A stretch of 64,000 nt of DNA, taken from NCBI GenBank assembly GCA_964431835.1, contig CAYSKO010000005.1, positions 52,167 through 116,166 of the forward strand, in the 5' to 3' direction. The notes under the pieces are model-generated. The model was not told the DNA's origin. It searched no databases and saw only the letters and a list, made by a program, of their open reading frames with translations. Below are positions 1 through 22,936 of the stretch, piece by piece. Numbering within the stretch: the first letter of the stretch is position 1; each line of letters opens with the position of its first letter. This DNA is from an uncultured Planctomycetia bacterium (GTDB lineage: Bacteria > Omnitrophota > Gorgyraeia > 2-02-FULL-51-18). The position numbers and the translations under genes were made by a program.

Positions 1-3000
1 GTACCGAGAAGGCCGGAAATCTCGCGGCCAGCGCGCAGGATGTGTCCCGGGGAGAACCAGCCCTCGGCGAACACGTATTTGTCGTAAACGAGTGTGACGC
101 GCTCGAGGGCCGGCATGGAAAGAACGCTCGTGCGGTACCCGAGGACGGTCAGGCTTTCGAGGCCGGCCTCGTGCAGGCGGCGCTCCAGGAGGTTGAACGC
201 CTGGGTGTCGGGCTCGACGACGTGGAGCGTCTTGACGCGCGGGTTGGCTTTCGCGAAACCCACGATGTCTTCGGCGTTGTCGTAGGGGCCGATGAAAAGA
301 ACTTCGTCTTCCGGCCCGTACCCGTCGGGCCGGATCCCCGCTTTTCGCAAGTAGCGGTTCAGATTCTCGAAATCGAAAGCGTACATCCGGTGTGTCATCG
401 TGAGTGCGTTTCCGGAAGCGCCCGCCGCATACCGTTTATTCGTGCGCGCGATCCGGCCGTCCGTGTCCCACTTCTTGATCAGAACGGCGGGCTGGGAAGG
501 AAAACGCACGACGATCGTCCGGATCCAGCCGGAATCGAGCGTGTGTCTTTGCCGGCGGTCGGGGAAGCCCCCCATCAAGTGGAAGCGGCGAAAGAGGGCT
601 TCTTCGCTCCAATACCAATCGTCTCCGCTCGCTTCGGAGCGTGTGACGCCGAGCACGAGCCCACGGCCGTCGTTTTCGATCGACACGCGGACTTCCCCTT
701 GTGATTCCCGGAGCGAGCGCTCGACAAGAATTCCGAGCGCGCGGCGGAAACGTCCGGGGTGGACGCCGTTCGCCGCGAGGTTTATGGGCGCAAGGAGATC
801 GATTTGGACGCGAGCGGCCTGTCCCGGCGGCAGGGTCGCCAGCGCCTGCTGGATGAGCACGATCCCGTCGCTTTGGCTGCCGTCGTTCGCCATGCGCGCA
901 CCCGACGGCGCCGCGGATTTCGACCCGAACGCGGTGACGAGCGTTGGGAGAACGCCGGTGACGATCCGCAGATCGCCGCCGACGCGAGAGGATAAGCGGC
1001 CGACCAGCGAACGGCCGATCGTCTCGGAAGACCACGGCGACACTGCGCTCTCGTCCATCACGCGGAGAATCTCCTTCATGAGCACCCACTGCCGGGCGCG
1101 CCAGTATTTATCGAGCGTCGCATTCTCCACGCTTTCGAGATAAGCTTCGTGCGACGTCGTTTCCTCCTCCCGGGGCGGCAAAGGGAAATCGAAATCCGGG
1201 TCGTCGACGACGTTCTTGCTCCAGAGAGCGAGCCAATCGGAGAGAATTCTCCGCACGAGCGGCGACTTCCGGCCGTCGGGAAGCGCTTGCGCGAGATAAA
1301 GCAGCGTCCGCATGTTAGCGATGCTGACGTTCAGCTCCGTCCCCTCCGGATAAAGCCGCGCGACGAGCTCGTGGAACCGCGACGCGATCCCCGCGCCTTG
1401 GTGGGGCGGGAAGGTCGTGTAAGAAGGTTCGACGACAAGCCCCCCTTCTTTCATCGAATGGCGAAGGGCGAGCGTGGCCGCGAGCTGATCGCCGGACGAG
1501 CGGAACCAACCGGATTTCCGGTAGACACGGAACCGGGCGTAATGCGGCGCTCCGACGACCGGGTCTGAACGGAGATAGTAGCCGGGGCCGAAAGCGATGC
1601 CGTCCAACGCCTCGCCGACGGGGCGCGCGATATCGAGGGCCGGCGAGTCCGAATCGAGCAGCCGTTCGATGCGCCCCCGGGTGGCAGAGACACCGGTGCG
1701 GTAGAAGAGCCAAGCATTGTAAGTGCGCCGGAGGAATCGCGTGAAAGCCGGGCGGGCGCTCCCTTCCGCGGCCACCCGCGCGCCGGAGGCCCGGACGGGG
1801 TCGGCGGAAGGCGTCCCCTCAGGCGAAGGCGGAAGGTAAATGGTGCGGTAGCGTGCGGGGAGCGGACGGGTCGCGCCCTCGTCGTCAGTGGACGTTTCGA
1901 TCCGCGCCACGGAACGCAGCCGTTCGAGTGCCGGAAATTTTGAGCGCGGATAACGGTTCGTCACGTGAAGCCGCATCGAGTCGGCGAAGCTCGCCGGATC
2001 CAGGGCGTGCTCGTATTCGGGAAGCGCATTCCGGTTGTTCAGCCGGTATAAAAGGGTCGTGATCCCCGTCGAAGGCCCGCTCGACCAACCTTCGATGACG
2101 ACGCCTTCGAGCCCCGTTTGGATAAACAGCTCGCCTCCGCGGCGGAGTTTCTCGTTCTTGATCTGCGCGACGAGCTCGAGTTTATTCTGAACGTAGGGCA
2201 GAACCGAAGTTCCGATCAGGATCACGTCGGCTCTCCCCTTAAAGGGTACACCGAGGTCGAGATCGGCGATCGTCTGGTTCTTTTCGAACCACGCGCGGAA
2301 TTCCGGAGACAACCAGCGTTCGGCCTTGCGGCGGACGTCCGAGGGAAGGGACGCGAGGTATTTTTCACGGTCGATCGAGAGACGTTCCTTGTTCACGAAC
2401 CGCAGTTTCACCCGCGGGCCGTAACGTTCCCGGAGTTCCGCCGCCGACGCCCCGAGGCCGGCGCCGAGGATCCAGACGTCGATTTGCTTGCGGGTTTCGA
2501 GCCGCCTCTGAACTGACCTCTCGACCGCGCCTTGAGTCACGTCGTCCTCCTGGGTGAAATCGCGCGCGACGTTCTGTGTTCCGACGTAAGGATTTCCTTC
2601 GGCCATGCGCGCTCCCGCCGGCCGTTCGAGCACCATCATTTTCCCGCTGACGCGGGTGGGGAGGCCGGTGACGCGCGTCAATTCCTCGGCCGCGGTGCGG
2701 CGGAATTCGTCCTGGGCCTCCGAAAAGAGCTCGCGTAGGCGCCCCAGGGAGTTTTCGACTTCGACGCGAGACGCGTGCGCCGGATCGTCCGGGGAAAGAT
2801 TCAGCGTCTCGAAAACGCTGCCGAAAAATTGAGTGTAGGCGAGCCCCATCCCCAGCGCGGATTCGCCGTCGCGTATTTCGCGGGCCCATCTCAAAAGGCC
2901 CGGGGGCAAGGAACGGTACAAACCGCCGGCCGTCAGATCCTCCTCGAGTTTCTTTAAGGCGGCGGAATTCAAGAGCGCCGTGGCTTCGGCGTACATCGCC

Positions 3001-6000
3001 TCGTAAAGTGCCCCGCTCCGCGTGTTTTGATGGACGATCTGCTCCGCCTGGCGAAGGGCCCGGTTCACCGCCTGCCGCGAGACGAGGTCGTTCACCGCCT
3101 CACCCTTCCAGAGTCCGCCTCCGCGATCCATCCAGGTGACTTCCCCGCCCTCGAACGCCGTGCTGAAGACATAAGCTTCGGGGACGAGACGATCCCCTCG
3201 CTTGCGGAACACCGCGAGTTTTTCCATGTCGGCGCCGCCGGACAACGGCGAGAAACCAGCGACGAGCGCGCCGCCCTCGCGCAAAGCCGCCGCCAGCGCC
3301 TCCCGGTTTTCGGGACCCGGAACGTTGAAGACCCGGACGAGATCCGCCGGAGGAAGCGCCGCCGTACGGTAATCGGCTCGAATGAACGAAACGCCGTTCC
3401 TAGAGAACAGGTTCCACGGGGAGGCGACGACGGGCCAGCGAGAATGAACGGAAGTGGGCAGCCAGCGCCCGAGGAAACGCGTTAAGATCTCGGAAAAGCG
3501 ACCGCGCGCGGTGCCGCGAACCCGTGCGGCGTACACCGACGCCTCGGTGAGGGTCCGCGGGACGACGTCTCCGGCGAGAATCACTCCGGAGGACGTGTCG
3601 AGCGCCACGATGTTCCCGGCGGCGTCGAAGAGGATCGCCTCGACCGTCACCGTGAACGACAGCGGGCCCACGTCCTGGTTCGCCAAGAGACCGCTTCTTT
3701 TGGCGCTCACGACAACGGCAGGCCGCACGATATCGACGCCTTTTACCGTGAAGGCGCCGCGCGGCACGATTTCCGAAATCTTCTTCGCCATCTCGAGTGT
3801 AGTGACGGGCGGATAACCGACGCCGATGTCGTAGATTTGGAGTTTACGGCGTTCGGCGCGGGCGCGGGCGGCGAGAGCCGGCACGATCTCCGAAGCCAGG
3901 AAGTCATCGACGCGCCGCAGACGGCCCGCGAACGTCGTGAAGTTGGAGGAGCCCGCAGGACCAGCCTGCGCGGTCTCCAGTTTCTCGAGGACGATCCCGT
4001 AAGCCGCCGGCTTGTCGCCGTTCGGAAGGACCTCCGCCGAAACCACGCGGAAACCGCGGGAGGCAAAATAGCCGGAAGCTTCGTCGGCCGAAGCGAAGAC
4101 GTTTTCGAGCATCGCCGAGAAGATCGCCGCGTCAAGCCGGGATTTTTTGCGTTCCGTCTCAATGCGCCCGAGCGCGCGCGCCGGATCCGCCGGAAGCGGG
4201 CCGCGGCGTCTTTCCAGAAGCTCCGCGTTCGCCGCGGCGAAATCGCCGCGCTCGACGTGCGCCTTCAGAAGGTCGCAGAAATCCTCGGCGGCCTGGAGAG
4301 CGCCGGCCGCTAGAGTCGCTTCCGCCGTGTAATCGGAATCCGGGTGGTGCAGTGCGAGAACGGCCCGGCCGCCCGGCTTGAGAGCCCGCAGGAGTTCGGC
4401 GGCGGCGGCGTCGCGATCGGCATAATCGTAACTGAAACTGTAGAGGGCTGCGTCGAGCTCCCCGTCCACGAAGCCTGTGCTTTCGGCGGATCCGCGCCGG
4501 AAGTCGATGCGCGAAGGCGGCTCGCCTTCCCTGTCCATTTCGAAGATGTCGACGGCTGTGATGCTCGCGCCGGGGAAACGGCTGGTCATCACGCGGGACA
4601 AGAAAAGATCGGCGCCCGCGCCGATGTCGCCGAGCTTTCGTCCTTCACCGGTGCCCCAGTACGCGCGCAGGCCGTTTTCGATGAAAAGTTCGACGGCCGG
4701 CGGGTAGGTGTCGAACGATCCTTGGCGGTTTTGGCGCAAGTTCTTCTCCCACACATCCACCCAGCGATCCTCAATGTCGTCACTCGAAGCCTCGAACGCC
4801 ATCCGCACACCCGACGCCGGCAGACGCCAGAGCTCCGCGCTCTCCCCGTTTAAGAGGACGGTGACGGGCTCCCAGCCCTTCTTACGGAACGCGAACTCGT
4901 AGTTTTCCCACAGGTTCACGCGGGGGATCTTCGGGTAACGCTTCGCGATGCGCCCGGAGTTCGACGCGTAAAACGATTCGATTCCCGCGGCCCGGAGTTC
5001 CCGGACCATCTCAGCGATCGCGTTTTCGATCCAGGGCCGGAAGACATTGCGGACGGACGTCGGACGCAAGAGACGGTACCCTAGAGAGGGGTGCATTTCG
5101 TCGAAGATCGCGGAGGACCGGCCGTCGATCGTTTCGAATTTCACCTGGATCTGCCCGAACGACCCTCTCGGGCCGATGTCTTCCTGCGAGGATCGTGCGT
5201 CGAGGGCCGCGAGTCCGGTGTAGGCCTTCCGCGTCGCGGCGTCCGGCGTCACGACGTAAACGTCGAACGCGCGGTCGTACTCGATCGTCGCGCCCACGAC
5301 GCCGCCTTTTCCGCTCCATTTGATGGGTTGTGGGGTAGAGAATATTCCCCGCAGACGCTCGGCCGGGGCCTGCCCTCCATACACCATGCGGGCGCCGCTG
5401 GCGGAGGCGACGGCCTTGCGCTCGAGGGCGTGACCCACGTACAGCGGCCGGGCTTCCGCGCGGCCGGCGATTTCGGCCAGCTCGGCGTCCGAGACCGTCC
5501 TCAGATTGGCGTTATTGAACATGGCCTGCTCTTGTCCGGAAAGCGTTTTTTCGAAAAGCGTCCGCGTCGCGGCGTTCATGTGGAAGAGGCTGTCGGAAAG
5601 GTACGCGTTGGGCGCGGCGTCCGGCGGCGCGATGAATCCGTAATCGCGCAAAAGAAGGTCCATCGCGATCAGGTTCCGCATGTCGGGGTGGGTCCGCGTC
5701 ACTTCGGGGTATTCCTCGAAGTAGCGGTTTAAAAGCGCTCGAAAAAGGCCGGCTCCGCGCAGCTGGGTTCCGTCTTCCAGAGCGAACCGGATGAGGAAAC
5801 CGCGCAAGCCGTAAACCGAGTCGCCCGCCGCGTCCGTCATCCCGTCCGAGGCGTACACGGACATCACCGGTTGCAGGCCGTCCGCGTGTTTCGAGACGTT
5901 ATCCCAGACGTCGACGCGCAGCTGGCGCCCGGTCCGGGTCGTGAGCAGCGCGAGCTCTCGCCCGGGCAGTGCTTCCAGGAGGAAAGGCTTCCATCCCTCC

Positions 6001-9000
6001 GCCGACTGACCGAGCGCCATCCGCGCGCCGGTCGCTTGAAGAGCCGCGGGGATCGAACGGTCGGTCGAAATGAAGCGATAGAGAGAGAACTTCTCGAACG
6101 GAGGCAGCGCCGCGTCGTTCTTGTAAAGGCCGAGCAGCGTCTTGAGCGCTTGGGCGGAACGGTCCAGGCGGTACGCGCTCGCTAATTTCCAGTAAACGAG
6201 CCAGCGAGGATTGGTTTTTTCGATGAGTCCGACGAGCGGTTCGAATTCGGAGGGATAAGCCGGCGCCACGATCCCGGCCGCGATTTTTTCCGCCTCGGCC
6301 CATTCGACCGACGGAAGGGAGTCCATCACCCCTTCGGGAGCGCTGTCCAGCCTGCGCCCGGCTCTCCCCTTCTCCGAAAGAAGGATGTCCGTGTATTCCA
6401 ATTCCGTTGGCGCGAAGGTTTCCGTCGGCGCGCTCGAATCGTAGGCGTTGAGTCCCGCCAAAAGCGATTTCATGAGTTCCATCGCGAAGGTTTGATCGAT
6501 GAATTCCGGGCTCGTGACGATCGAAACGATTTTCCCCCGCGCGACGATCGGAACGAGCTGCCGCATCGCACGTTGGACGGCCGCGTCGCGGGCCCATCGG
6601 TCGGCTCTCGGCTCGTCGATGCCGGCGTCCCGATGGCTCTTACGGATCCTCTCGTACAACCCCATGAAGAAGTCGAGATCCACGTCGACGATGTCGATGG
6701 AGGGGGCGGAGAGAACGTCCTCGAGCGGTTTTTTCTCGAGACCGTAATGGAAATGAAAAGGGCTGTCGTCGGGCCGGGCATCCGCATCCCAAATCAGCCG
6801 CTGCGGAAGGACCTGGTCGTCGATCTCCGCCAAATGGAACCACGCCTCGGCGTCGATCAGGCCGGCGGCGACCAACGGCGCGATGAAGTCGTCGATTTCA
6901 TAACCCCGGATCGCTTCGGCGAGTTGGGCCGGATCTTCGACGTCGACCGGCGGGAGAAAGTCGAGATCGACCGGCTTCGCGAAAGCTCGTTTGGAGACCA
7001 GGTCGTCCGGATGCCGGTCCACGTGCAGAAGCGTCGAGTTGTTCCCGATGAGTCCCGTCCGCCTGGCTTCCAACCAAAACGGCAGCGCTTTGTGATGGTG
7101 GTCGCTTAGAAAAATCTGGCGGCCCGCCGACGTCGTGATCTTGAAGCTACGCTTGCCGAAAAGAGCGGAGTCCGTCGCGGCCGTCACTTCCGCGGGAACC
7201 TGAAACGTGCCGAACGGTTCCGCGCCGGCGGCCATCCTCGCACCTCGCTCCCCGCTCACCTCCAGCGCTTCCAGAGCGTCGAAAAGTTCGGAGCGCTTTC
7301 CGTCGAGTTCTTTCAGATCGACGCGCACGAGGCGCGCCACGAGCTTGCCGAGTTCCCGCTCGCCCGCGAAAAAAGAAAGCCGCGCGGTCGCACGGTCCAC
7401 GATACGCTGGTTCGGCGCGTAAAAAAGAGATTTGAACGTTTCGCGGCGCGTCGCGAGCGGTTGGTCCCACGCACGCATCGCATCGGGAGAACCGGCGGCC
7501 GCCGCGAGCGCCCGCTCGAGAGTGGGCCCGAGCTCCACGAGGCTCATCTGGGCGATCGAGACGCCGAGCGCGAAGAGATCCGCGTCGTAAGGGTTAAGCG
7601 GCACCTCTTCGGCGAAGGAGAGAACGGCGCTCGTGGGCATGTAGCCCGGCGTACCGCTGATCCCGTAAACCGATTCCACCCCGAGCTTCGCGCGGCTCAG
7701 CCCGTCCCCTTCGAGCAGGGACACGCCGAAATCGTGCAAAACCGGAGGCCGCGCGTCGATCTCGGCCGGCGTCGGCGCGCGCGGTCCGAAATACGAGGGA
7801 GGAAACCAGAAATTGGAGGGCTTCACGTCGCGGTGGGCCACGCCCCGGGAATGCACGTGGCGGAGCGTGCGCGCGAGCGTCTTAAAAAGATGAACGCGCG
7901 ATTCCGCAGGCCACTGCGCGATGAGACGCGACGCCTCCTCCGCATCGATGGCCTGCCGGGCAAGCGATTCGATCTCCTCCCGGGTACCGAAAGGCTCCAA
8001 AAGAAGCGCGACCGGGGTTGTGCGCGCCCGCAGGGCTGCCGCGAGATCCCGCAGGGCGGCTCGTATCTCCGGCTCGCCGCTCTTGGAAGACAGAAGATCG
8101 TAAACCGAAACGAGCTTCGCCGAAATTTCGCTGAAATCTTCCTGCGCACCGGCCGCTCGGGGCAGATCGCGGCGCGCACCTCCGGGATTCACCGCGTTTA
8201 AGATCGCAGCTTGCGCGACGATTCCGCGCAGGATATGGAGGGGTGGAAAAATTTCTCGAAGTGGCCGGGTTTCGAGCGTCGCGACGTCGGCCTCGTCCAG
8301 AGTGACGCGTCCGACCGAATCCACGGCGTACCATCCTTTCGGCAGGAGAGCAACGGAATCCCCGGCCCAGTACGCGCTCGCGAAGCCGCCGCTCCCAATG
8401 ACGCTCCCCACCAGGAAGTCCGCCATCCGCGCGGCGGATACCACGGGAATCTCGGCGGAGTCCGCGTCGCGCGTTTTCGTCGCGTAGCCGAGAGCGGCGA
8501 GGGCCGCTTTGGATTCGATCGCTGTCGCTCGTCCCGGGAAGCGCGTCGTCTCGACTTGCTTGGCCTGGTCGATCAGCTGGTAAATCCAGTCGAATTCGGC
8601 GGCGGGAAGCTTGCGGGCCGTCTCGAAAGTGCCGCGCGGAAGCATCGAGCCGGCGGCGGCGGGCTTTTTCCGGAGCGGCGCCAGAAGCAGCTCCTCGTAT
8701 TTCGCCTGGTTCGTTTCCGTGGAAACCGCCGGAGTGAGGACCGCGTACGAAAAACCGTCTTCGCGGAGAAGTTTTTTGAGGTGCGGCGTGTGGTAGCCGC
8801 CGGTGATCAGAATCGCGACGCTTTCCTTCTCCGCGGCGAGCGCCTTCGACGTATTCCGAACGAACGCAAAATCGCGTTCCCGCACCGAATCGTAAAAGGC
8901 TTCGAGCGGCGTCTTCGCCTTCTCGAGCGCGTCGCGGTACGGCACGAGATCCTCGAACGCGCCCGCTTCCGCGAGAAGACGGTTCACAAAAGCAAGGTAG

Positions 9001-10229
9001 GACGCGGTCGCGAAATCGGTCTCGTTCGCGCGGAACGCTTCGAACTCCTCCGCGCTCATGCGGATGCGAAACGCCGTGTCGAGAAGCGCGACGTAGCGGT
9101 CGATCGCGCGGAGTTTCCGCGGCGCGTCGCCGGCGAGAAGTTTCGCGTAGCAGGCCTCGCGCGCCGCCGCCGCGTCCTTCAGCACCGCGTCGAGATCGAT
9201 TTCAGAGAATGCGCGGAGATAATCCACGTATTTCGAGAGCGCCGGATAATCCTCGAGACGGATTCCCTTCTCTCGCGCGATAACAAAAGTGTTTCGGAAG
9301 TGAGGATAACGCGAGAGCGCGGCGCCCTTGGCGTTCCCCATCCGTTCGAGCGAAGCCCGGAGTTCCGAACCCCCGCCGCGGCGCGCGATTTCTTCCGCGA
9401 GAGCCCCCTGCTCGAGATTGGCACGCTCGAAGTCGATCTCCTTTTCCGTCGCTTCGAGCGCGCCTAGGCGAGCGAGCGACGGATACCCAGAGGCATCGAT
9501 ACCGGCGTACGCCAGAAGTTCCAACGCCGCCCTAAAATCGGCTTCCCCTCCGGCCGCGGCCGCGCGAGCCTCGAACGCCAGAAGTTCCCGCGGATAGAGA
9601 CGGCGCTTCATTTTCTCAATGGCCGTGCGCACGCGCGATAGGTATTCGAGCGCGTCCGTGCGGACCGCCGCGAGGTCCGCGTAGCTCGAGACGCTCTTGA
9701 AATAGAGAGCTTTGTCCTCGACGCCGACGATCTTCATCGGCTTATCCGAGATGAGATTGAGGTATTCCTCGCCGGAGATTTTTCCCTCGACGAGGAAACT
9801 CTTGGCCACGCGCTTCCAGGTTTCCGGCGACGCGATCGACTTGATCGGGGTGAGCGTCGCGTCGCGCGAGCCGCCTTCGACGAGCACGAGCCGCACGTCG
9901 TATTTCTCCATGATCGCGTCGAGTGCCCAGGCTAGATTCTCCTGGCCGCTCAGATTTGAATGGGCGTCCTGAATATGGATGACGAAGGGGCCTGTGCCGC
10001 GATGAACTTCCCGCAAGGAAGCGAATGGAAGGGGCGGCTCGAAACGCGAAGGGTCCGAAGCGAGCGAAACCGCCGAAGGGGCGGGAGAAGACAGCGGGGC
10101 GGCCTGCGCGACTTCCGCCGCCAGAAAAGAAGCGACGAGAACGCAAGCGACCGTGCGCAGTCCGAGACGGCGCCGGTCCCCGCGTAACCAAAATTTATAT
10201 AAAGCGAGCAATGCGAGTGCGTTGGGCAT
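1..10229 (-). CDS. Giant multidomain protein, 5' end (ATG 10229) complete and 3' end beyond window start. At least 3409 aa lie in the window. It carries a signal peptide, a TraB/GumN/Tiki-like domain, a Hanks-type kinase core, arginase/deacetylase-like motifs, at least three SAM-methyltransferase-like modules and an FkbM-like module.
   Basis: Manual reverse-complement translation from ATG 10229 (MPNALALLALYKFWLRGDRRRLGLRTVACVLVASFLAAEVAQAAP...) found no in-frame stop down to nt 1. Codon third positions are strongly G/C-biased, like the verified nuo genes. No minus-strand ORF in the supplied track shares this frame (start coordinate congruent to 2 mod 3) anywhere in 1-10270, as expected for a frame with no stop inside the window. 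Motifs were checked directly against the forward sequence, e.g. HRDVKPSNFWF is the reverse complement of 7803-7835 and VLHDFGVS of about 7730-7753. Confidence 0.8.
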   Translation of the reverse strand, partial: MPNALALLALYKFWLRGDRRRLGLRTVACVLVASFLAAEVAQAAPLSSPAPSAVSLASDPSRFEPPLPFASLREVHRGTGPFVIHIQDAHSNLSGQENLAWALDAIMEKYDVRLVLVEGGSRDATLTPIKSIASPETWKRVAKSFLVEGKISGEEYLNLISDKPMKIVGVEDKALYFKSVSSYADLAAVRTDALEYLSRVRTAIEKMKRRLYPRELLAFEARAAAAGGEADFRAALELLAYAGIDASGYPSLARLGALEATEKEIDFERANLEQGALAEEIARRGGGSELRASLERMGNAKGAALSRYPHFRNTFVIAREKGIRLEDYPALSKYVDYLRAFSEIDLDAVLKDAAAAREACYAKLLAGDAPRKLRAIDRYVALLDTAFRIRMSAEEFEAFRANETDFATASYLAFVNRLLAEAGAFEDLVPYRDALEKAKTPLEAFYDSVRERDFAFVRNTSKALAAEKESVAILITGGYHTPHLKKLLREDGFSYAVLTPAVSTETNQAKYEELLLAPLRKKPAAAGSMLPRGTFETARKLPAAEFDWIYQLIDQAKQVETTRFPGRATAIESKAALAALGYATKTRDADSAEIPVVSAARMADFLVGSVIGSGGFASAYWAGDSVALLPKGWYAVDSVGRVTLDEADVATLETRPLREIFPPLHILRGIVAQAAILNAVNPGGARRDLPRAAGAQEDFSEISAKLVSVYDLLSSKSGEPEIRAALRDLAAALRARTTPVALLLEPFGTREEIESLARQAIDAEEASRLIAQWPAESRVHLFKTLARTLRHVHSRGVAHRDVKPSNFWFPPSYFGPRAPTPAEIDARPPVLHDFGVSLLEGDGLSRAKLGVESVYGISGTPGYMPTSAVLSFAEEVPLNPYDADLFALGVSIAQMSLVELGPTLERALAAAAGSPDAMRAWDQPLATRRETFKSLFYAPNQRIVDRATARLSFFAGERELGKLVARLVRVDLKELDGKRSELFDALEALEVSGERGARMAAGAEPFGTFQVPAEVTAATDSALFGKRSFKITTSAGRQIFLSDHHHKALPFWLEARRTGLIGNNSTLLHVDRHPDDLVSKRAFAKPVDLDFLPPVDVEDPAQLAEAIRGYEIDDFIAPLVAAGLIDAEAWFHLAEIDDQVLPQRLIWDADARPDDSPFHFHYGLEKKPLEDVLSAPSIDIVDVDLDFFMGLYERIRKSHRDAGIDEPRADRWARDAAVQRAMRQLVPIVARGKIVSIVTSPEFIDQTFAMELMKSLLAGLNAYDSSAPTETFAPTELEYTDILLSEKGRAGRRLDSAPEGVMDSLPSVEWAEAEKIAAGIVAPAYPSEFEPLVGLIEKTNPRWLVYWKLASAYRLDRSAQALKTLLGLYKNDAALPPFEKFSLYRFISTDRSIPAALQATGARMALGQSAEGWKPFLLEALPGRELALLTTRTGRQLRVDVWDNVSKHADGLQPVMSVYASDGMTDAAGDSVYGLRGFLIRFALEDGTQLRGAGLFRALLNRYFEEYPEVTRTHPDMRNLIAMDLLLRDYGFIAPPDAAPNAYLSDSLFHMNAATRTLFEKTLSGQEQAMFNNANLRTVSDAELAEIAGRAEARPLYVGHALERKAVASASGARMVYGGQAPAERLRGIFSTPQPIKWSGKGGVVGATIEYDRAFDVYVVTPDAATRKAYTGLAALDARSSQEDIGPRGSFGQIQVKFETIDGRSSAIFDEMHPSLGYRLLRPTSVRNVFRPWIENAIAEMVRELRAAGIESFYASNSGRIAKRYPKIPRVNLWENYEFAFRKKGWEPVTVLLNGESAELWRLPASGVRMAFEASSDDIEDRWVDVWEKNLRQNRQGSFDTYPPAVELFIENGLRAYWGTGEGRKLGDIGAGADLFLSRVMTSRFPGASITAVDIFEMDREGEPPSRIDFRRGSAESTGFVDGELDAALYSFSYDYADRDAAAAELLRALKPGGRAVLALHHPDSDYTAEATLAAGALQAAEDFCDLLKAHVERGDFAAANAELLERRRGPLPADPARALGRIETERKKSRLDAAIFSAMLENVFASADEASGYFASRGFRVVSAEVLPNGDKPAAYGIVLEKLETAQAGPAGSSNFTTFAGRLRRVDDFLASEIVPALAARARAERRKLQIYDIGVGYPPVTTLEMAKKISEIVPRGAFTVKGVDIVRPAVVVSAKRSGLLANQDVGPLSFTVTVEAILFDAAGNIVALDTSSGVILAGDVVPRTLTEASVYAARVRGTARGRFSEILTRFLGRWLPTSVHSRWPVVASPWNLFSRNGVSFIRADYRTAALPPADLVRVFNVPGPENREALAAALREGGALVAGFSPLSGGADMEKLAVFRKRGDRLVPEAYVFSTAFEGGEVTWMDRGGGLWKGEAVNDLVSRQAVNRALRQAEQIVHQNTRSGALYEAMYAEATALLNSAALKKLEEDLTAGGLYRSLPPGLLRWAREIRDGESALGMGLAYTQFFGSVFETLNLSPDDPAHASRVEVENSLGRLRELFSEAQDEFRRTAAEELTRVTGLPTRVSGKMMVLERPAGARMAEGNPYVGTQNVARDFTQEDDVTQGAVERSVQRRLETRKQIDVWILGAGLGASAAELRERYGPRVKLRFVNKERLSIDREKYLASLPSDVRRKAERWLSPEFRAWFEKNQTIADLDLGVPFKGRADVILIGTSVLPYVQNKLELVAQIKNEKLRRGGELFIQTGLEGVVIEGWSSGPSTGITTLLYRLNNRNALPEYEHALDPASFADSMRLHVTNRYPRSKFPALERLRSVARIETSTDDEGATRPLPARYRTIYLPPSPEGTPSADPVRASGARVAAEGSARPAFTRFLRRTYNAWLFYRTGVSATRGRIERLLDSDSPALDIARPVGEALDGIAFGPGYYLRSDPVVGAPHYARFRVYRKSGWFRSSGDQLAATLALRHSMKEGGLVVEPSYTTFPPHQGAGIASRFHELVARLYPEGTELNVSIANMRTLLYLAQALPDGRKSPLVRRILSDWLALWSKNVVDDPDFDFPLPPREEETTSHEAYLESVENATLDKYWRARQWVLMKEILRVMDESAVSPWSSETIGRSLVGRLSSRVGGDLRIVTGVLPTLVTAFGSKSAAPSGARMANDGSQSDGIVLIQQALATLPPGQAARVQIDLLAPINLAANGVHPGRFRRALGILVERSLRESQGEVRVSIENDGRGLVLGVTRSEASGDDWYWSEEALFRRFHLMGGFPDRRQRHTLDSGWIRTIVVRFPSQPAVLIKKWDTDGRIARTNKRYAAGASGNALTMTHRMYAFDFENLNRYLRKAGIRPDGYGPEDEVLFIGPYDNAEDIVGFAKANPRVKTLHVVEPDTQAFNLLERRLHEAGLESLTVLGYRTSVLSMPALERVTLVYDKYVFAEGWFSPGHILRAGREISGLLG
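100..300 (-). other. FkbM-family-like methyltransferase motif region of the giant protein, cut by the window edge
   Basis: LFIGPYDNAEDIVGFAKANPRVKTLHVVEPDTQAFNLLERRL resembles the FkbM/Methyltransf_21 v-A-F-E-P-x-P-x-x-F-x-x-L signature. Confidence 0.3.
2070..2520 (-). other. SAM-methyltransferase-like Rossmann module 3 of the giant protein
   Basis: DVWILGAGLGASAAEL (GxGxG), ADVILIGTSVL, LRRGGELFIQTG. Confidence 0.4.
3200..3840 (-). other. SAM-methyltransferase-like Rossmann module 2 of the giant protein
   Basis: QIYDIGVGYPP (motif I-like), ADLVRVFNV, LREGGALVAGFSP (motif III-like). Confidence 0.4.
4320..4710 (-). other. Class I SAM-dependent methyltransferase-like Rossmann module 1 of the giant protein
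   Basis: Motif I LGDIGAGADLF, post-I ITAVDIFE, motif II LDAALYSFSYDYA, motif III LKPGGRAVLALHHP. Confidence 0.55.
6480..7140 (-). other. Arginase/deacetylase (ureohydrolase)-fold-like metal-binding motif region of the giant protein
   Basis: Ordered motifs FLSDHHH, LLHVDRHPDD (DxHxD) and IDIVDVDLDFF (DxDxxD) resemble the three Mn-ligand motifs of arginase/agmatinase/UPF0489-like proteins. Pattern only. Confidence 0.3.
7500..8430 (-). other. Hanks-type Ser/Thr protein kinase-like catalytic domain inside the giant protein
   Basis: Gly-rich loop VIGSGGFASAY, candidate VAIK-equivalent Lys (ALLPK), catalytic loop HRDVKPSN (H at 7835), DFG (LHDFGVS) and activation-segment GTPGYMP appear in canonical order. 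About 188 residues separate the G-loop from HRD, which implies an insert of roughly 60 aa. Confidence 0.65.
8730..10050 (-). other. TraB/GumN/Tiki-like domain of the giant protein
   Basis: N-terminal FVIHIQDAHSN...VRLVLVEGG and C-terminal SVAILITGGYHTPHLKKLLREDGFSYAVL resemble the TraB/GumN family motif (v-G-A-G-H-l ... LL-R-x-x-G-Y-x-V). Confidence 0.4.
10092..10229 (-). other. Predicted N-terminal Sec signal peptide or signal-anchor of the giant protein (positively charged RGDRRRLGLR, hydrophobic TVACVLVASFLAA, AQA-AP cleavage-like site)
   Basis: n/h/c-region organisation read from the translation; no tool run. Confidence 0.45.
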
Positions 10230-10409
10230 TGGGTTAGGGCAAGTATACCCGCCGTCCGGCTCAAATTCAAAATAGAGACGATCCATAAAACTATATTATA
10301 AAAAGACTTATAAAAATCTTATTCTACGCTGACTCACTTTTGACTGGAAACGCTTAAAACAGGCCGTTTCCTCTATATACAGGGGCCTCCAGTGCTTTTT
10401 CCGATTCCT

Positions 10410-10438
10410 TTGACTTGGTTTTTCGTTTTCTGTACAAT
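10410..10438 (+). promoter_or_regulatory. sigma70-type promoter of the nuo-mrp cluster: -35 TTGACT (10410-10415), 17-nt spacer, -10 TACAAT (10433-10438)
   Basis: Near-consensus hexamers with optimal spacing lie 34 nt upstream of the nuoA ATG, in an AT-rich divergent region. Confidence 0.6.
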
Positions 10439-10471
10439 GGCTCCCATAAACCGTTCGGAGCACTTTTTTTC

Positions 10472-10837
10472 ATGACTTTATTAAACGATTATTCTTACGT
10501 CTTCGGATTTCTCGTCATCGGCGTCGGGTTCGTGGTCGTCAACACCCTCCTGCCCCTCCTGATCAGTCCGCGAAGCCGCGGTTCCCGCGCGAACGACCCG
10601 TACGAAAGCGGCGAAGTCCCGATCGGCGGCGCGTGGGTACAGTTCGACGTCAATTACTACCTCTTCGCATTGATCTTCATCGCCTTCGACGTCGAAGCCG
10701 CATTCCTTTTCCCGGTTCTTGCGGTGTACCGCGAGGTTCCGGGCTGGGGCGCGTTCGTCGAGGTCGCCGTTTTCCTCTTCATCCTGTCGTTCGCGATCCT
10801 CTACGCTTGGAAAAAAGGACTCTTCTCCTGGAAGTGA
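10472..10837 (+). CDS. nuoA: NADH-quinone oxidoreductase subunit A
   Basis: MTLLNDYSYVFGFLVIG...; the track ORF 10415 starts at a TTG inside the promoter, so ATG 10472 is preferred. Confidence 0.9.
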   Translation: MTLLNDYSYVFGFLVIGVGFVVVNTLLPLLISPRSRGSRANDPYESGEVPIGGAWVQFDVNYYLFALIFIAFDVEAAFLFPVLAVYREVPGWGAFVEVAVFLFILSFAILYAWKKGLFSWK

Positions 10838-10840
10838 TGC

Positions 10841-11509
10841 ATGGCCGATCCGATTAAAGAACCCCAGCTGTATAAAAACCCCGCTTACCTGCAGACCCAG
10901 TCGCCTGCGCCAGGAATCGTGAACCTTTTCCACGTCGAGGACGTGCTGAACATGGCCCGCGCCAATTCGCTTTGGCCGCTCACGTTCGGCCTCGCCTGCT
11001 GCGCCATCGAGATGATGGCCGGCGGCGCCGCGCGTTACGATCTCGACCGCTTCGGCTTCGGCGTGTTCCGTCCTTCGCCGCGCCAAGCGGACGTGATGAT
11101 CGTCTCGGGTACGATCTCGCGCAAGATGGTTCCCTGCATCAAAACGCTCTACGACCAGATGCCGTCTCCGAAATACGTGATCGCGATGGGCGGCTGCGCC
11201 ACCGCGGGTGGCCCGTTCAAATTCCCGGGCCAGTACGGCATTCTCGAGGGCATCGACAAGATCATTCCCGTGAACGTCTACATTCCCGGCTGCCCGCCGC
11301 GCCCCGAAGCGCTGATCGCCGGCATCCTCGAGCTTCAAAAGCAAATCAAAGCGGGCAACGTGCAAGGCGTGATGTCGCCGGCGGCCGTCAACGACTCTCA
11401 GGACGCGCGCCCCGCCGAATACAAAAACGCGGTCTCCCGCGCCGATTTCCGCAAACCCGCCGCTCCGGCCGCTCCCGCGGCTCCTGCGTCGGCGGAGCCG
11501 AAAGCCTAA
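10841..11509 (+). CDS. nuoB: NADH-quinone oxidoreductase subunit B (20 kDa, N2 cluster) with Ala/Pro-rich C-terminal tail
   Basis: [28 protein letters not shown] Cys motifs. Confidence 0.95.
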
Positions 11510-11512
11510 AAC

Positions 11513-13144
11513 GTGTCCCCCGTCGCTGAAAAAGACATGAAAGCCTGGCTCGTCTCGTCGGTGAAGCCCGACGAGTTCGCGGAAAAAGATCCGAAGTCGG
11601 GCGTTCTCTTCGAAGCTCTCGTCGGCCGCGAGCATATCCGGGAAGTCGCACGCGAATTCCGCACGCAGGGGTGGTTTCTCGAGTCGATTTCCATCGTCGA
11701 CTTCGCCGAATGCTTCGAGATCGTCTACCATTTCAACAAATGGGGCGTTGCCCGCCGAGCCTGCGTAAAGACGCTCGCCCTGAAGGCGGAAGGCGAAGCG
11801 GCGTCCGCTCCCTCGATCTCGGACGTCTTCCGCGCCGCCAACTGGCACGAGCGCGAGGCGTACGACATGTTCGGTCTCGTCTTCGAAGGCCACCCGAACC
11901 TGAAGCGCCTCCTTCTTCCCGAAACTTCGAAGATCCACCCGCTACGCAAGAGCTTCAAGGGCGAACCCAAGGGCTCCGACGTCGAGGACTCCCTGCGGCT
12001 CATCCAAGAAGACACCGAGGGCTTCGAGGTGCGCTACCCGAGCCAGCTCACGAAGAGCCAGAAGGATTACTACCTGAATCTCGGCCCTCAGCATCCGAGC
12101 ACGCACGGCGTCCTTCGCGTCCTTCTCCATTTAGACGGCGAGCGCGTGCTAGACGGCGAGCCGGTACTCGGCTACTCGCACCGCAACCAGGAAAAGATGT
12201 TCGAGATCCAGAATTACCTCGCCTGCTGGCCGCAGTTCGGCCGCCTCGATTACGTCGGCGCGATGGCGTTCAATTTCGGCTACGCCCACCTGATCGAAAA
12301 GGCGATGGGCATTGAAGCGACGCCCCGCGCCCAAGCGATCCGCGTCCTGGCGACGGAGCTAAACCGCATCTCCTCCCATCTCCTCTGGATGGGCACGTTC
12401 CTCCTCGATCTCGGGGCGTTCACGCCGTTCTTCTACTGCTTCGACGACCGCGAAAAGATCATCGACATCCTCGAGATGGCCACCGGCGAGCGCCTCACCT
12501 ACGACTACTTCCGTTTCGGCGGGCTCGATCACGACATCCCTGAGGAGATGCTCCCCGCCGTGAAGGCGTTCGTCCCCGAATTCAAGAAACGACTCAAGGA
12601 TTACCACAAGCTCGTCACGAAGAATCCAATCTTCATCTCGCGCACGCGGGGCCTCGGCGTCCTCACGAAGGACCAGGCCCTGAATTACGGCGTGAGCGGT
12701 CCCTGCTTGCGCGCCTCGGGCGTCCGCCAGGATCTTCGCCGCGACGAGCCCTATTCTATTTATCCCACGCTCGATTTTGACGTTCCTACCATGACGGACG
12801 GCGACGTCTGGTCGCGTTACACAATCCGTATGCGCGAGATGGAGGAGAGCCTGAAGATCGTCTCCCAGCTGGTGGAAAAAATCCCGGCCGGAGACGTCAC
12901 GCTCGGCAAGTTGCCGAAGAACGTGCCGAAGGGCGAATATTATTCCGCGGTCGAATCGGCGCGCGGCGCATTCGGCATCTATCTCGTCAGCGACGGCACG
13001 CTCAATCCCTACCGCATGAAACTGCGTACGCCCTCGTTCTGCAATTTGAGCGCGTTCAGCGAGATGATCCCCGGCTGCCTCCTCTCCGACGTGATCGCGA
13101 TCCTGGGCTCCATCGACATCGTTCTCCCGGAGATCGACCGGTGA
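11513..13144 (+). CDS. nuoCD: Fused NADH-quinone oxidoreductase subunits C and D
   Basis: NuoC motif [29 protein letters not shown], then Nuo[13 protein letters not shown]...RTPSF in one 543-aa frame. GTG start at 11513, alternative ATG at 11537. Confidence 0.9.
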
Positions 13145-14124
13145 CCGGAAACCCCGTCCTCGACGAGCTTCTGAAAATCGTCCTCTGGGGAACGCTCGTG
13201 ATCCTTTTCGTGTCCGTGAACGCGCTTTTCCTCGTCTGGGCCGAGCGCAAAATCTCGGCGCGCATCCAGCTACGCCAGGGCCCGCTTCACGTCGGCTTCC
13301 AGGGGACGCTGCAGACCGTGGCCGACGCGATCAAGCTCATCTCGAAGGAATTGACGCTTCCCAAATCCTCGGCCAAGAGCCTCTACATGCTCGCTCCGGT
13401 GCTCGTCTTCGCCCCGTCGATCGCGGCGTTTCTCGTGCTTCCGTTCTCGCCGGAAATGCCGATGCGCGATCTCAACATCGGCTTCCTCCTCATCTTCTCG
13501 CTCACGAACGTCACTTTCATCGGCGTCTTCCTCGCCGGCTGGGCCTCGAACTCCAAATACGCGCTCCTGGGCTCCATGCGCGCCATCGCGCAGAACATCT
13601 CTTACGAAATTCCCCTCCTTCTTTCCACGATGGGCGTCGTCCTCTGCGCGGGGACCCTCCAGATGTCCGGAATCGTCCGGGCCCAGGAGCACGGCTGGTT
13701 CCTTTTTAATGGCCAGGTGATCGCGTTCGTCGTCTTCATCGTCTCGGCACTCGCCGAGGCCAACCGTGCGCCATTCGACATTCCCGAGGCCGAATCCGAG
13801 CTCGTCGCCGGTTTCCACACCGAGTACTCGGGCATGCGGTTCGCGCTTTTTTTCCTCGGCGAGTACACGGCCGTCTTCATCTCATCCGCCGTGGCCGTGA
13901 CGCTTTTTCTCGGCGGCTGGAGCGGCCCGCTCCTTCCTCCGCCCGTCTGGTTCCTCCTTAAGACCTATTTGATCGTTTTCGTGGTGATGTGGATCCGGTG
14001 GACGTTTCCCCGCCTGCGCTCGGATCAGCTCATGGCGCTGGCCTGGAAGGTGCTGATTCCGTTCGCTCTCCTCAACATCCTTTTGACGGCGCTTTTTATC
14101 CAGCTGCAAAGGAGCCTCGCATGA
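13141..14124 (+). CDS. nuoH: NADH-quinone oxidoreductase subunit H
   Basis: GTG start overlapping the nuoCD stop (GTGA); typical NuoH TM sequence. Confidence 0.9.
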
Positions 14125-14687
14125 GCGTCGTCGGTCGCTATTTCAAAGACGTCTTCTCGGGTTTCTGGGCGCTCCTCGCGGGTATGGCCGTCACCGCGCG
14201 CTATTCGGTCAAACCCCCGGTCACGCTGATCTACCCCAAGGAGCGCATGCCTCTCAAGCACTTCAAGGGTCCCATCGCTTTCACGACCGACGAGAAGACA
14301 GGGGACCACAAGTGCATCGCCTGCAATGCCTGTATCAAGACCTGCCCGTCGCGCTGCATGTCGCTCGTCGCACAAAAAAGCGCTCTGGACGGAAAGCGCG
14401 TTCTCACGGACTTCAAAGTAAATTACATGCTCTGCAGCCTGTGTAGCCTGTGCATTGACGTCTGCCCCACCGACGCGCTGAAGCACGACTCCCCCAATTA
14501 CGACATGGTCGCCTCGAACCAGCGTGACATGCACATGGATCTCTTGAAGCCTTACCGCGACGCCGGCACGCCGCTCACGAAGATACCGGTGGTCGATCCC
14601 GCGGCCGCGGCGGCAAAGCCTTCGCCGACGAAGCCCGAGAACAATGCCGCGGACAAGCCGCTCAGCCCCGAGGAACCGAAATCTTGA
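14121..14687 (+). CDS. nuoI: NADH-quinone oxidoreductase subunit I (2x[4Fe-4S]) with Pro/Ala/Lys-rich C-terminal extension
   Basis: CIACNACIKTCP and CSLCSLCIDVCP; ATG 14121 overlaps the nuoH stop (ATGA). Confidence 0.9.
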   Translation: MSVVGRYFKDVFSGFWALLAGMAVTARYSVKPPVTLIYPKERMPLKHFKGPIAFTTDEKTGDHKCIACNACIKTCPSRCMSLVAQKSALDGKRVLTDFKVNYMLCSLCSLCIDVCPTDALKHDSPNYDMVASNQRDMHMDLLKPYRDAGTPLTKIPVVDPAAAAAKPSPTKPENNAADKPLSPEEPKS

Positions 14688-15181
14688 GCCTACCCGACGC
14701 CTTTTTCCTCTTCTTCGCGGGAATCACGCTGGGCGGAGCCGTTCTCGCGGTGACCTTGCGGAACGTCTTCTACAACGCGCTCTCCCTGATCCTCTGCCTG
14801 GCGGGTGTGGCGGGACTTTTCGTTTTCCTGAACAGCGAGTTCCTCGCGGTGATGGAGGTCATCATCTACATCGGCGCGATCTCCATCGCGATCCTCTTCG
14901 CGATCATGCTCTCCCAGCCTATGATGCCCGTAAAGGAGCCCTTAAACCGCGGGAAGGTCGCGCGCGCGGCGCTCGTGGCGGGTCTTCTTTTCCTCGGACT
15001 CTCGCGCGTCATCGGGCGTTCGCAGTGGTCCACGGCTCCGCTCGAGGGCGACTACTCGCTTCAGGGAATCGGCCGCATGCTGCTCGGAGCCAACATGATC
15101 CCGTTCGAGGTTGTTTCGCTCGTGCTCCTAGTCGCCATCATCGGTGCGCTGGTCCTCACGGGCTCGAAAGGACGCGGATGA
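14684..15181 (+). CDS. nuoJ: NADH-quinone oxidoreductase subunit J
   Basis: TTG start overlapping the nuoI stop; NuoJ-like TM protein. Confidence 0.8.
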   Translation: MSLPDAFFLFFAGITLGGAVLAVTLRNVFYNALSLILCLAGVAGLFVFLNSEFLAVMEVIIYIGAISIAILFAIMLSQPMMPVKEPLNRGKVARAALVAGLLFLGLSRVIGRSQWSTAPLEGDYSLQGIGRMLLGANMIPFEVVSLVLLVAIIGALVLTGSKGRG

Positions 15182-15489
15182 GCGAGAGTCTCGGCGCCTA
15201 TCTGTTCATTTCGACCGCCCTTTTCTGCTTGGGAGTATACGGCCTTCTCTCGCGGCGGAACCTCGTGGCGATGCTAATCTCGCTTGAGCTGATCCTGAAC
15301 TCTGCGAGCCTCAACTTCGTGGCGTTCAACAAGTTTTCGCTCATCAACAAGGCCGCCGGCCAGACCTTCGCGGTCTTCGTGATCGCGCTGGCCGCCGCCG
15401 AGGTCACGATCGGCTTGTCCCTGATTCTTCTTTTCCACCGTAAACGCGACTCGATCAACGTCGAGGACGCGGGAGAGATGAAAGGATGA
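15178..15489 (+). CDS. nuoK: NADH-quinone oxidoreductase subunit K
   Basis: MSESLGAYLFISTALFCLGVYGLLSRRNLVAMLISLELILN... with conserved Glu residues in TM helices; ATGA overlap with nuoJ. Confidence 0.85.
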   Translation: MSESLGAYLFISTALFCLGVYGLLSRRNLVAMLISLELILNSASLNFVAFNKFSLINKAAGQTFAVFVIALAAAEVTIGLSLILLFHRKRDSINVEDAGEMKG

Positions 15490-17396
15490 CAAGCGACCTC
15501 TTCCTCCTCTGGACGATCCAGCTTGCGCCGCTGGCGGCTTTCCTTCTCCTTTTCGTTCTGCCCAAGGGCGCGCGCCGCGCCGCGCCCGTCGTGGGCATGG
15601 TCTTCGCGTTCGCGGCCGCCGCGGCGTCGATCACGCTCCTTTTCTCACACGCGGGCGAACACGGCGGGTTCGTCTACGAATACAAGACGCTCTGGCTGCG
15701 GGTTACCGAGATGGCGCTTTGGCCGGGCGTCGTGATGCCCGAATACGTCCTTTCCGCCGGCTTCTTGGTCGATCCGCTCAACCTTCTCATGATCGCGATC
15801 GTCACCACGATCGCGTTCTTCGTGCAGATGTTCTCCTACTACTACATGGCGGAAGACCCGTCCAGGCCGCGCTACTTCGCTTTCCTGTCGTTCTTCTCTT
15901 TCGCGATGACGGGCTTGGTCCTCGCCTGCAACCTTCTGCAGACGTTCCTCTTCTGGGAACTCGTAGGACTGGCTTCTTACCTTCTGATCGGATTCTGGTA
16001 CGAGAAGCCGGCGGCGGCGACGGCCGCGCGCAAAGCGTTCGTTCTGAACCGTCTGGCGGATCTCGGTTTCTACCTCGGCATCGTTTTTCTCTTTTTCTTC
16101 GTCGGCACGCTCGATTTCACGGCGTTCCGCCCCGACGCGCTGCGCGAGGCGATGGGCTCCGGCTGGGCGGCCGCCGTGGGGCTCCTCGTCTTCATGGGCG
16201 TCATGGGCAAGTCCGCTCAATTTCCCTTCCACGTCTGGCTGCCAGACGCGATGGAAGGCCCCACCCCGGTTTCCGCCCTAATCCATTCGGCCACCATGGT
16301 TGCGGCGGGCGTGTTCCTCATGGCACGCGCCTTTGGTCTTTTCGCGGCTTCCGAAGCGGCCCTCACCGCGGCGCTCGTGGCCGGCGCGCTGACCGCGATA
16401 ACGGGCGCGCTCCTGGCGACCGTCCAGCGGGATATCAAGCGCATCCTCGCCTACTCGACCGTCAGCCAGCTCGGCCTCATGGTGATGGCGATGGGCGCGG
16501 GCTCTCCGGTCGCTGGGATGTTCCACCTGTCGACGCACGCGTTTTTCAAATCACTCCTTTTCCTCACGGCCGGCGCGTTCATCCACCGTTTCCATTCGAA
16601 CGACATCTGGGAAATCGCGCGTGCCGGCGGAAAAAAAGACAAGCTCGCTATGGCGGCGCTCACGCTCGGCCTCCTCTCGCTTTCGGGTATTCCGCCGCTC
16701 TCGGGCTTCTTCTCGAAGGACCTGCTCCTCGAAGCGCTGAGCGAGCGTTCTGGCTTCTTTTATTGGATCGGCGTCGCGGTGAGCTTCCTGACCGCGTTCT
16801 ATTCGTTCCGCCTTCTTTTCGTTCTCCTTTTCACGAAGCCGGGCCATGCGCCGCACGCCGCGCACGCGCACGCGCCGTCACCTTTCCTGAGCGCCTGCCG
16901 CGCGGTGCCGCTGGTTTCGCTCGCTTTGCTCTCGCTTCTGATCGGAGCGCTGGGAACGTCGTGGGGCGGATCGGCACTGCTCCACTGGCTCGGCGGTCAC
17001 GATGCGCACCTGGATCCGACGATCGCCGGCACGACGCTCGTTCTCGCTTCGATCGCGGTCGTCCTGGCTTTCTTTAAGTTCCGCGATCCCGCGGCAGCCG
17101 AAACGCGCCTCGAGGAAGAAGGCGGGTCCTGGAAGCGCGCGCTCCAGCATAAGTTCTACGTCGACGACGCGTACGAATTCCTCGTTAAGAGCGTCGGCCT
17201 GTCCTTCGCGGCGGCGCTCAACTGGATCGATAAACGGGTGTTCAACCGCCTTTTCGTCGATCGGACCTCCGGCGCCGTGCTCGGTCTCGGAAAGCTCCTC
17301 TCCCGCCTCCAGAGCGGCCTTCTCCAAGATTATCTCTCGCTGGCCGTGGGCGTCGGCATCGTCATTCTCCTTTTCGTATTGAAAGGAACGCCTTGA
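15486..17396 (+). CDS. nuoL: NADH-quinone oxidoreductase subunit L (antiporter-like)
   Basis: 636 aa with WLPDAMEGPTPVSALIHSATMV motif. Confidence 0.9.
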   Translation: MTSDLFLLWTIQLAPLAAFLLLFVLPKGARRAAPVVGMVFAFAAAAASITLLFSHAGEHGGFVYEYKTLWLRVTEMALWPGVVMPEYVLSAGFLVDPLNLLMIAIVTTIAFFVQMFSYYYMAEDPSRPRYFAFLSFFSFAMTGLVLACNLLQTFLFWELVGLASYLLIGFWYEKPAAATAARKAFVLNRLADLGFYLGIVFLFFFVGTLDFTAFRPDALREAMGSGWAAAVGLLVFMGVMGKSAQFPFHVWLPDAMEGPTPVSALIHSATMVAAGVFLMARAFGLFAASEAALTAALVAGALTAITGALLATVQRDIKRILAYSTVSQLGLMVMAMGAGSPVAGMFHLSTHAFFKSLLFLTAGAFIHRFHSNDIWEIARAGGKKDKLAMAALTLGLLSLSGIPPLSGFFSKDLLLEALSERSGFFYWIGVAVSFLTAFYSFRLLFVLLFTKPGHAPHAAHAHAPSPFLSACRAVPLVSLALLSLLIGALGTSWGGSALLHWLGGHDAHLDPTIAGTTLVLASIAVVLAFFKFRDPAAAETRLEEEGGSWKRALQHKFYVDDAYEFLVKSVGLSFAAALNWIDKRVFNRLFVDRTSGAVLGLGKLLSRLQSGLLQDYLSLAVGVGIVILLFVLKGTP

Positions 17397-18850: not shown

Positions 18851-18851
18851 C

Positions 18852-22935: not shown

Positions 22936-22936
22936 C

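Follow-up and report, generated by a model that had tools for sequence, protein, structure and literature searches.

The window analysed here is a 64,000-nucleotide (nt) stretch of contig CAYSKO010000005.1 (assembly GCA_964431835.1, positions 52,167 to 116,166), and the subject of this study is a giant gene on its minus strand that encodes three methyltransferase-fold modules among many other domains. No stop interrupts the minus-strand frame between nt 10295 and nt 3; its start codon is ATG 10229, and it runs off the start of the window, for which reason the list of open reading frames has no long entry in nt 1–10,000. The portion inside the window represents the first 3,409 of 4,854 residues. 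The complete protein was identified in an exhaustive HMMER search with the methyltransferase region. This 1,010-residue query (residues 1807–2816) recovered P0022, a public protein of 4,854 residues, from which it differs at a single position (E/K at 2003; identity given by the search as 100%). Over the whole portion inside the window, 2 of 3,409 residues differ between the two proteins. This match to the open reading frame (ORF) of the window fixes the start at ATG 10229 and places a further 1,445 codons outside the window; the last 1,445 residues are known via P0022 alone. A word-indexed homolog search and a genome scan with the methyltransferase region returned nothing, as did a word-indexed search with the alignment of module 2 (see below), and relatives of the region were found by the exhaustive HMMER search only. 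A plus-strand frame that is nearly open across the same region was rejected as the antisense of the real minus-strand gene.

The full protein was divided into 15 segments: a head, then 13 segments bounded by junctions, and finally a tail segment at the C-terminus. The modules that could be identified are two kinase-like domains, a UPF0489 domain, and three methyltransferases, while several others had no family match. The coordinates of all features inside the window are collected in Table 1.

On the basis of sequence comparison and a structural model, nt 1785–4811 of the minus strand are predicted to encode three different class I S-adenosylmethionine (SAM)-methyltransferase-fold domains. Three such modules in one polypeptide had been claimed in the initial annotation of this DNA, and the claim was borne out by Pfam (module 1), by hhalign, by PDB profiles, and by the model of module 2. 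Module 1 was matched by Methyltransf_11 at 37.6 bits (cut-off 21.2; nt 4359–4628) and by Methyltransf_25 at 27.2 bits (cut-off 27). The complete motif set that had been ascribed to it is present, and in order: motif I (LGDIGAGAD, nt 4608–4634), post-I (ITAVDIF, nt 4542–4562), motif II (LDAALYSF, nt 4434–4457), and motif III (LKPGGRAVL, nt 4356–4382), which together occupy residues 1866–1958. More than 100 relatives of module 1 were found, including P0023 and P0026, and many of them are modules of other very long proteins; an HHP(D/E)S sequence after motif III is common to these relatives. Weak PDB sequence matches were obtained to CouO and MitM, which are small-molecule methyltransferases.

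For module 2, no match was found in Pfam at E≤10, and none in the PDB profile search; a weak PDB match to the signal recognition particle receptor (E 0.028) was dismissed as chance. Its homologs comprise four copies in three proteins. The module carries the signature D-x-G-x-G-x-P-P-x-T-T-x-E; in the resulting five-sequence alignment, D-x-G-x-G-x-x-P-x-T-T-x-E is invariant, and the family has G-V-D at the post-I position, D-x-x-R-x-x-N-V at motif II, and E-G-G at motif III. In the AlphaFold model of the module (pLDDT, the predicted local distance difference test, of 61.6, with most core blocks at 70–93), the strands follow the class I order, and about 110 residues are inserted behind strand 2. 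Helices of low confidence were modeled at its C-terminal end (residues ~2385–2420), just upstream of residues 2421–2538. When compared to the profile of module 1 using hhalign, module 2 scored 85.6% (E 5.6e-6), with the alignment covering motif I and post-I only.

For module 3, the evidence apart from Pfam is clear. The comparison to the module 1 profile yielded 97.9% (hhalign, E 3e-13) over 115 columns that extend from motif I to motif III. In the PDB profile search, 8k76 (a SAM methyltransferase) ranked best at E 3e-4, ahead of spermidine synthases and ArsM; nearly all of the top matches have the methyltransferase fold (SAM methyltransferases, spermidine synthases). The module has 19 homologous modules. 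Methyltransf_11 is passed by 3 of the 8 family members scanned, and the copy in the window had no Pfam match. The initial annotation would have been refuted had a Rossmann methyltransferase fold been missed in modules 2 and 3; the fold was recovered in both. They apparently constitute two unannotated methyltransferase-fold families, and the motif pattern kept in both suggests a conserved cofactor site.

The modules have a Rossmann-like core, motif I, an acidic post-I residue, and motifs II and III in common with methyltransferases of the Methyltransf_11 / UbiE-COQ5 type (Coq5, 4obw; CouO, 5m58; MitM; TmtA). Among solved structures, the closest relatives are for the most part small-molecule methyltransferases, at sequence identities of 11–20%. 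Unlike this type, module 2 has its insertion and a signature of its own, and module 3 has an NPY...RGF lead-in. A fourth, FkbM-like motif had been reported in the same polypeptide (at nt 100–300; assessed here as nt 69–305), and it is not supported: no Pfam match was obtained at E≤10, hhalign gave less than 1% against modules 1–3, no homologs were found, and the sequence reads IGPYDNAED where G-x-G is expected.

The segments of the protein meet at a short junction peptide. Its consensus is (S/A)-G-A-R-(M/L)-A, and 14 copies are present in the full protein, against about 0.1 expected. In the ORF of the window, the form G-(A/V)-R-(M/V)-(A/V), usually S-G-A-R-M-A, occurs 7–8 times (0.07 expected), and the motif is absent from the other reading frames of the window. 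The codons are synonymously varied between the junction copies of this gene. The same motif was present in 14 of the 21 protein-database homologs of the head, and in head-bearing genome loci of 44–66% G+C content (GC) there are up to 16 junctions per ORF (~3,900 residues); the loci with this junction lie among L002–L075. A logo of 309 junctions featured small or polar, unconserved flanks, and the median spacing was 274 residues, i.e. the size of one domain. There is no junction between modules 1 and 2, which share one segment; module 3 fills a segment by itself.

Strongly over-represented boundary peptides of a different sequence occur in further long proteins in which modules 1 or 3 are found. 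These are RSEVR in P0028 and P0033 and RAEVR in P0082 (15 copies); further boundary peptides are SSSPI in P0080 (10 copies), GTSHA in P0049 (9 copies), ASSAV in P0090, and DGG in P0099. It seems that such peptides are specific to a lineage. In each lineage, the peptide in use there (GARMA, RSEVR, GSSPI, SSAV, or DGG) flanks module 3 on both sides at corresponding positions. Segment 4 has one homolog, in locus L002; two GARLA junctions delimit it precisely, and its rank within that protein is another one. Homologs that stand alone have the size of a module (278 residues in P0159, compared with 277 in module 3). The segments are therefore cassettes, and the junction belongs to the lineage of the host protein and not to the domain. 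Each methyltransferase module has its nearest relatives in other proteins (E 1e-20 to 1e-33), and the same module families are seen elsewhere alone or in other combinations and orders. The methyltransferases are thus not the product of duplication in this gene; each is its own module family.

The head is the conserved part of the arrangement. The N-terminus has basic residues, an 18-residue hydrophobic stretch, and the sequence A-Q-A/A-P; homologs share this basic/hydrophobic/small-x-small pattern, and from its sequence it reads as a signal peptide. Homologs of the head (the first ~520 residues) were found in 21 database proteins and 123 genomic stretches, nearly all of them from metagenome-assembled genomes (MAGs) of Candidatus Omnitrophota, with many paralogs per genome. 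The closest heads (55–57% identity) bear other NCBI labels, namely Planctomycetia and Eisenbacteria. No Pfam match and no PDB sequence match were obtained for the head, and Foldseek returned nothing significant. Its alpha/beta core likely, but not certainly, resembles the hydrolase fold of ChaN, erythromycin esterase, TraB-Tiki, and RRSP; unlike in that superfamily, the core is split by a helical insertion of about 300 residues. In an alignment of 22 sequences, conservation reaches at least 90% at H90 and E118 and is complete at H480. These residues, candidates for an active site of the His/Glu/His type, directly follow strands 82–88, 114–117, and 471–477.

The domains found behind the head in its homologs include methyltransferases, an intein, HEAT repeats, a phosphoglucomutase, and a CAAX protease. 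The setting of the gene is more constant. Its upstream neighbor in the window is a divergent nuoA-B-CD-H-I-K-L-M-N operon, followed by housekeeping genes. In at least 11 Omnitrophota loci (L009, L014, L015, L017, L021–L023, L027, L028, L030, and L039), a head-bearing gene divergently adjoins nuoA-B-CD, as it does in the window (10230–13144). In these loci NuoB is 81–89% identical and NuoCD 67–74% identical, and, apart from the head and a relative of module 1 in L015, none of the segments of the window protein was found there. The head and its position are conserved, and the cargo is replaced.

Given the observed folds, junction statistics, cassette boundaries, head conservation, and cargo turnover, we favor, at a probability of about 0.6, the reading that each methyltransferase is an enzyme cassette in its own right within a head-junction-cargo protein and is probably released by cleavage at the junctions. 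The junctions would be recognition sites for proteolytic processing, and the head might be the protease that cuts them. Cleavage would free module-sized enzymes, each acting separately, and one gene would deliver a set of enzymes in the manner of a polyprotein or a multi-effector toxin. Several points weigh against this reading. Export, cleavage, the identity of the protease, and the methylated substrates are steps that we infer, and the binding of SAM is a prediction from the motifs. The model of module 2 is of moderate confidence (five sequences). The codon bias at the junctions exceeds what the peptide needs, which hints at an additional or alternative role at the level of the nucleic acid. 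Finally, SAM- and ATP-dependent enzymes behind a putative signal peptide require explanation; their location suggests either action inside another cell or a cytoplasmic, membrane-anchored topology. The former would fit the predatory or host-dependent lifestyle that has reportedly been proposed for Omnitrophota; the latter is the preferred view in bioRxiv 10.64898/2026.06.07.730766. A wider proposal is offered only tentatively, and it may well prove wrong: (S/A)GAR(M/L)A, together with RSEVR, RAEVR, SSSPI, GTSHA, and ASSAV, would be the processing sites of Omnitrophota giant proteins, the head would be a cis-acting protease, and the genes would be bacterial polyproteins in which a fixed export-and-processing head delivers rapidly exchanged enzymes (methyltransferases, kinases, and others), possibly into or onto prey or host cells.

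The alternative that survives best, although we consider it somewhat unlikely, is that the junctions act at the nucleic-acid or translation level, either as short recombination sites for cassette shuffling among paralogs or as signals for ribosome pausing where domains meet, and that the protein works intact. A 15-nt DNA consensus (GGCGCSCGGCTGGCG) could be defined at the junctions; 129 of its 133 matches were in frame, and its strand bias was 176 to 16. In genomes below 50% GC, the junction codons favor GGC GCG CGG CTG GCG, with CGG used at 70% versus a background of 18%. The existence of this consensus, with its strong codon preference even in low-GC genomes and its strand bias, speaks for such a role. 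So do the many paralogs with shuffled cargo per genome and the lineage-specific junction peptides, as concerted evolution would yield. However, mismatches to the DNA consensus are mostly at synonymous sites, which argues that the junction peptide itself is under selection. Also, fifteen nucleotides is short for homologous recombination. A role at the nucleic-acid level is compatible with cleavage, and the two can coexist. An internal Shine-Dalgarno sequence and start at the junctions was also considered and is not favored: NTG codons are enriched at the junctions, but GGAG is present at 1 of 8 junctions, the upstream codons vary synonymously, and there are no stops.

Processive or multi-site action of the methyltransferases on one substrate, as suggested in the initial annotation, would be expected if they were tethered in an uncleaved scaffold and acted together, possibly with the kinase. 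This arrangement we regard as unlikely. Modules 1 and 2 are located in one segment without a junction between them, so the pair may act together, and P0118 has a methyltransferase domain directly upstream of its copy of module 2. Moreover, many such proteins have been taken as membrane-anchored enzyme scaffolds (bioRxiv 10.64898/2026.06.07.730766). Nevertheless, no support for processive action on one substrate was found, and the cassette organization speaks against an obligatory team, because a junction cuts off module 3, the module families are found independently and in other orders elsewhere, and positional orthologs differ in cargo and do not have this set of modules. The kinase, which had been described as adjacent, is not: the kinase-like module is about 870 residues upstream of module 1, from which three other modules separate it. 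The Pfam scan of the protein revealed neither carrier nor docking domains.

It is still less probable that some modules have the methyltransferase fold but no catalytic activity and instead bind ligands or proteins. Module 2 would be the likeliest candidate, and the “fourth” module may not have the fold at all, given the missing G-x-G. Modules 2 and 3 are missed by Pfam, and motif I has a substitution at its third glycine in modules 1 (GAGAD) and 2 (GVGYP). On the other side, the module 2 family is invariant at the D, G, and G of motif I, at the acidic post-I residue, and at the D, R, and N of motif II, and module 3 keeps G-A-G-L-G and the acidic residue that ends strand 2. Very improbable is the origin of the array by internal tandem duplication of one methyltransferase, an option raised in the initial annotation: the class I fold is common to all three modules, and a profile-level relationship links modules 3 and 1, but self-BLAST and all-against-all phmmer comparisons of the segments found nothing, hhalign gave 2.8% for module 2 versus module 3, and the relatives of each module in other proteins, cited above, are much closer.

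Giant multi-enzyme proteins of Omnitrophota have already been described, as “Archaeovorin-type” proteins (bioRxiv 10.1101/2023.11.21.568195) and as “multi-enzyme clusters” (bioRxiv 10.64898/2026.06.07.730766). In these two preprints, PF08241 methyltransferases, HATPase domains, and GNAT domains form a recurrent set, and C39 and S8 peptidase domains are proposed as processing enzymes; one of the texts calls the cleavage points unknown, and the missing cleavage points are said by the describers to have blocked structure prediction and functional dissection. The phylum setting of the window protein matches, as its head homologs and the nuo synteny are found in Omnitrophota MAGs. Here, too, many unrelated enzyme domains tile one polypeptide. 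The published size classes are ≥10,000 or ≥30,000 residues, and the window protein is below them. Unlike the giants as described, it has a probable ChaN/Ere/Tiki-like head and a defined junction peptide. A description of the junction motif was not found in the two preprints or in other literature, a provisional result, as access to the literature was limited. With the same proviso, no earlier description appears to exist of the two methyltransferase-fold families, the probable ChaN/Ere/Tiki-like head, or the junction peptide.

Taken alone, the array of three methyltransferases is a further example of the described Omnitrophota multi-enzyme giants. What would matter is the junction-based organization, which has been kept in dozens of genomes whose GC differs widely and which lies behind a conserved head with a probable hydrolase fold. 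With a defined junction, such proteins can be divided in silico by rule, metaproteomes can be screened for a specific peptide, and a simple reporter assay is at hand.

Two better-known systems invite comparison. Multifunctional autoprocessing RTX (MARTX) toxins are cut between their units at a leucine site. The window protein differs in that neither RTX repeats nor a cysteine protease domain were found in whole-protein scans with Pfam and NCBIfam. Its putative cleavage site would be the GAR(M/L)A junction instead of the leucine site, and its export appears to depend on an N-terminal signal peptide. Viral polyproteins bear consensus cleavage sites. Like them, the window protein has a short conserved peptide at the boundaries of its units, with unconserved flanks, and a domain of probable hydrolase fold in the same chain. 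Unlike them, it is encoded by a cellular chromosomal gene and has hypervariable cargo in place of a fixed set; the protease activity of the head is hypothetical.

Table 1. Features of the giant gene inside the window (nt, window coordinates; aa, residues of the encoded protein)
Feature	Position	Strand	Basis
Giant ORF, cut by window start	3..10229	-	open frame, P0022 match
Putative N-terminal signal peptide or signal anchor, aa 1-43 (...RGDRRRLGLR-TVACVLVASFLAAEVAQA/AP)	10101..10229	-	read from sequence; same pattern in homologs
Conserved head domain, aa 1-598, ordered to about aa 520	8436..10229	-	
Junction 1, AARMA	8421..8435	-	
Protein-kinase-like module, aa 599-995, HRD and DFG motifs	7245..8435	-	Pfam Pkinase
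Junction 2, GARMA	7230..7244	-	
UPF0489 module, aa 996-1400	6030..7244	-	Pfam PF12640, 43.2 bits versus cut-off 27
Junction 3, GARMA	6015..6029	-	
Segment 4, aa 1401-1611	5397..6029	-	no Pfam match; homolog in L002
Junction 4, GARMV	5382..5396	-	
Segment 5, aa 1612-1806	4812..5396	-	no Pfam match
Junction 5, GVRMA	4797..4811	-	
Methyltransferase module 1, aa 1807-2085, class I SAM methyltransferase domain and helical C-terminal extension	3975..4811	-	
Methyltransferase module 2, aa 2085-2420, class I fold, ~110-aa insertion between strands 2 and 3	2970..3977	-	
Probably helical end of segment 6, aa 2421-2538	2616..2969	-	no Pfam match
Junction 6, GARMA	2601..2615	-	
Methyltransferase module 3, aa 2539-2815, N-P-Y...N-V-x-R-G-F lead-in, then class I Rossmann core	1785..2615	-	
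Junction 7, GARVA	1770..1784	-	
Segment 8, aa 2816-3109	903..1784	-	no Pfam match at E≤10
Junction 8, GARMA	888..902	-	
Start of module 9, aa 3110-3450, cut by window; holds the “FkbM-like” motif (nt 69-305)	3..902	-	no Pfam match

Concerning the remaining modules, the kinase-like module in the window scored 34.4 bits against Pkinase when scanned alone (cut-off 31.7) and 29.5 bits in the scan of the whole protein. The second kinase domain, located in the part of P0022 beyond the window, is stronger (Pfam, 66 bits). The UPF0489 module is weakly similar to peptide arginases (NCBIfam pept_arginase, 17 bits, far under the cut-off). Segments 4, 5, 8, and 9 have a GNAT-like or HATPase-like look by eye alone (GNAT-like for segment 8), and the Pfam scan found neither domain in them. 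The giant protein is nearly devoid of cysteine (0.1% of residues; window 3–10295, minus strand).

A similar tail is present in many family members (P0001, P0008, P0024, P0026, P0036, and residues 4464–4854 of P0022), ending in ...Q-A-(V/I)-G-(A/G)-(A/S)-A, which suggests that a C-terminal module is conserved besides the head. A second, unrelated but likewise conserved N-terminal domain (…LWVNLSPYEKDRIIP…) heads P0025, P0046, P0054, P0094, and P0110, which are carriers of modules 2 or 3. Proteins with this domain often end in G-G-I-D-L-T-P-A-N-M-N-L-Q; the domain and its tail imply that the same cassettes are also served by at least one further head/tail system.

No Rfam family and no tRNA were found within the window. 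In the neighboring complex I operon (11513–25516, plus strand), NuoC and NuoD are fused, and there are five antiporter-like subunits, one of which (20267–22528) is fused to MbhD/MbhE-like domains. The operon has a strong T-over-A skew. Farther away, nt 50547–53792 (minus strand) encode a 1,081-residue protein with a spermidine-synthase-type domain and C-terminal tetratricopeptide (TPR) repeats, and nt 26764–27942 (minus strand) encode a conventional PUA-domain SAM methyltransferase (RlmI-like by Pfam) that is unrelated to the giant gene.

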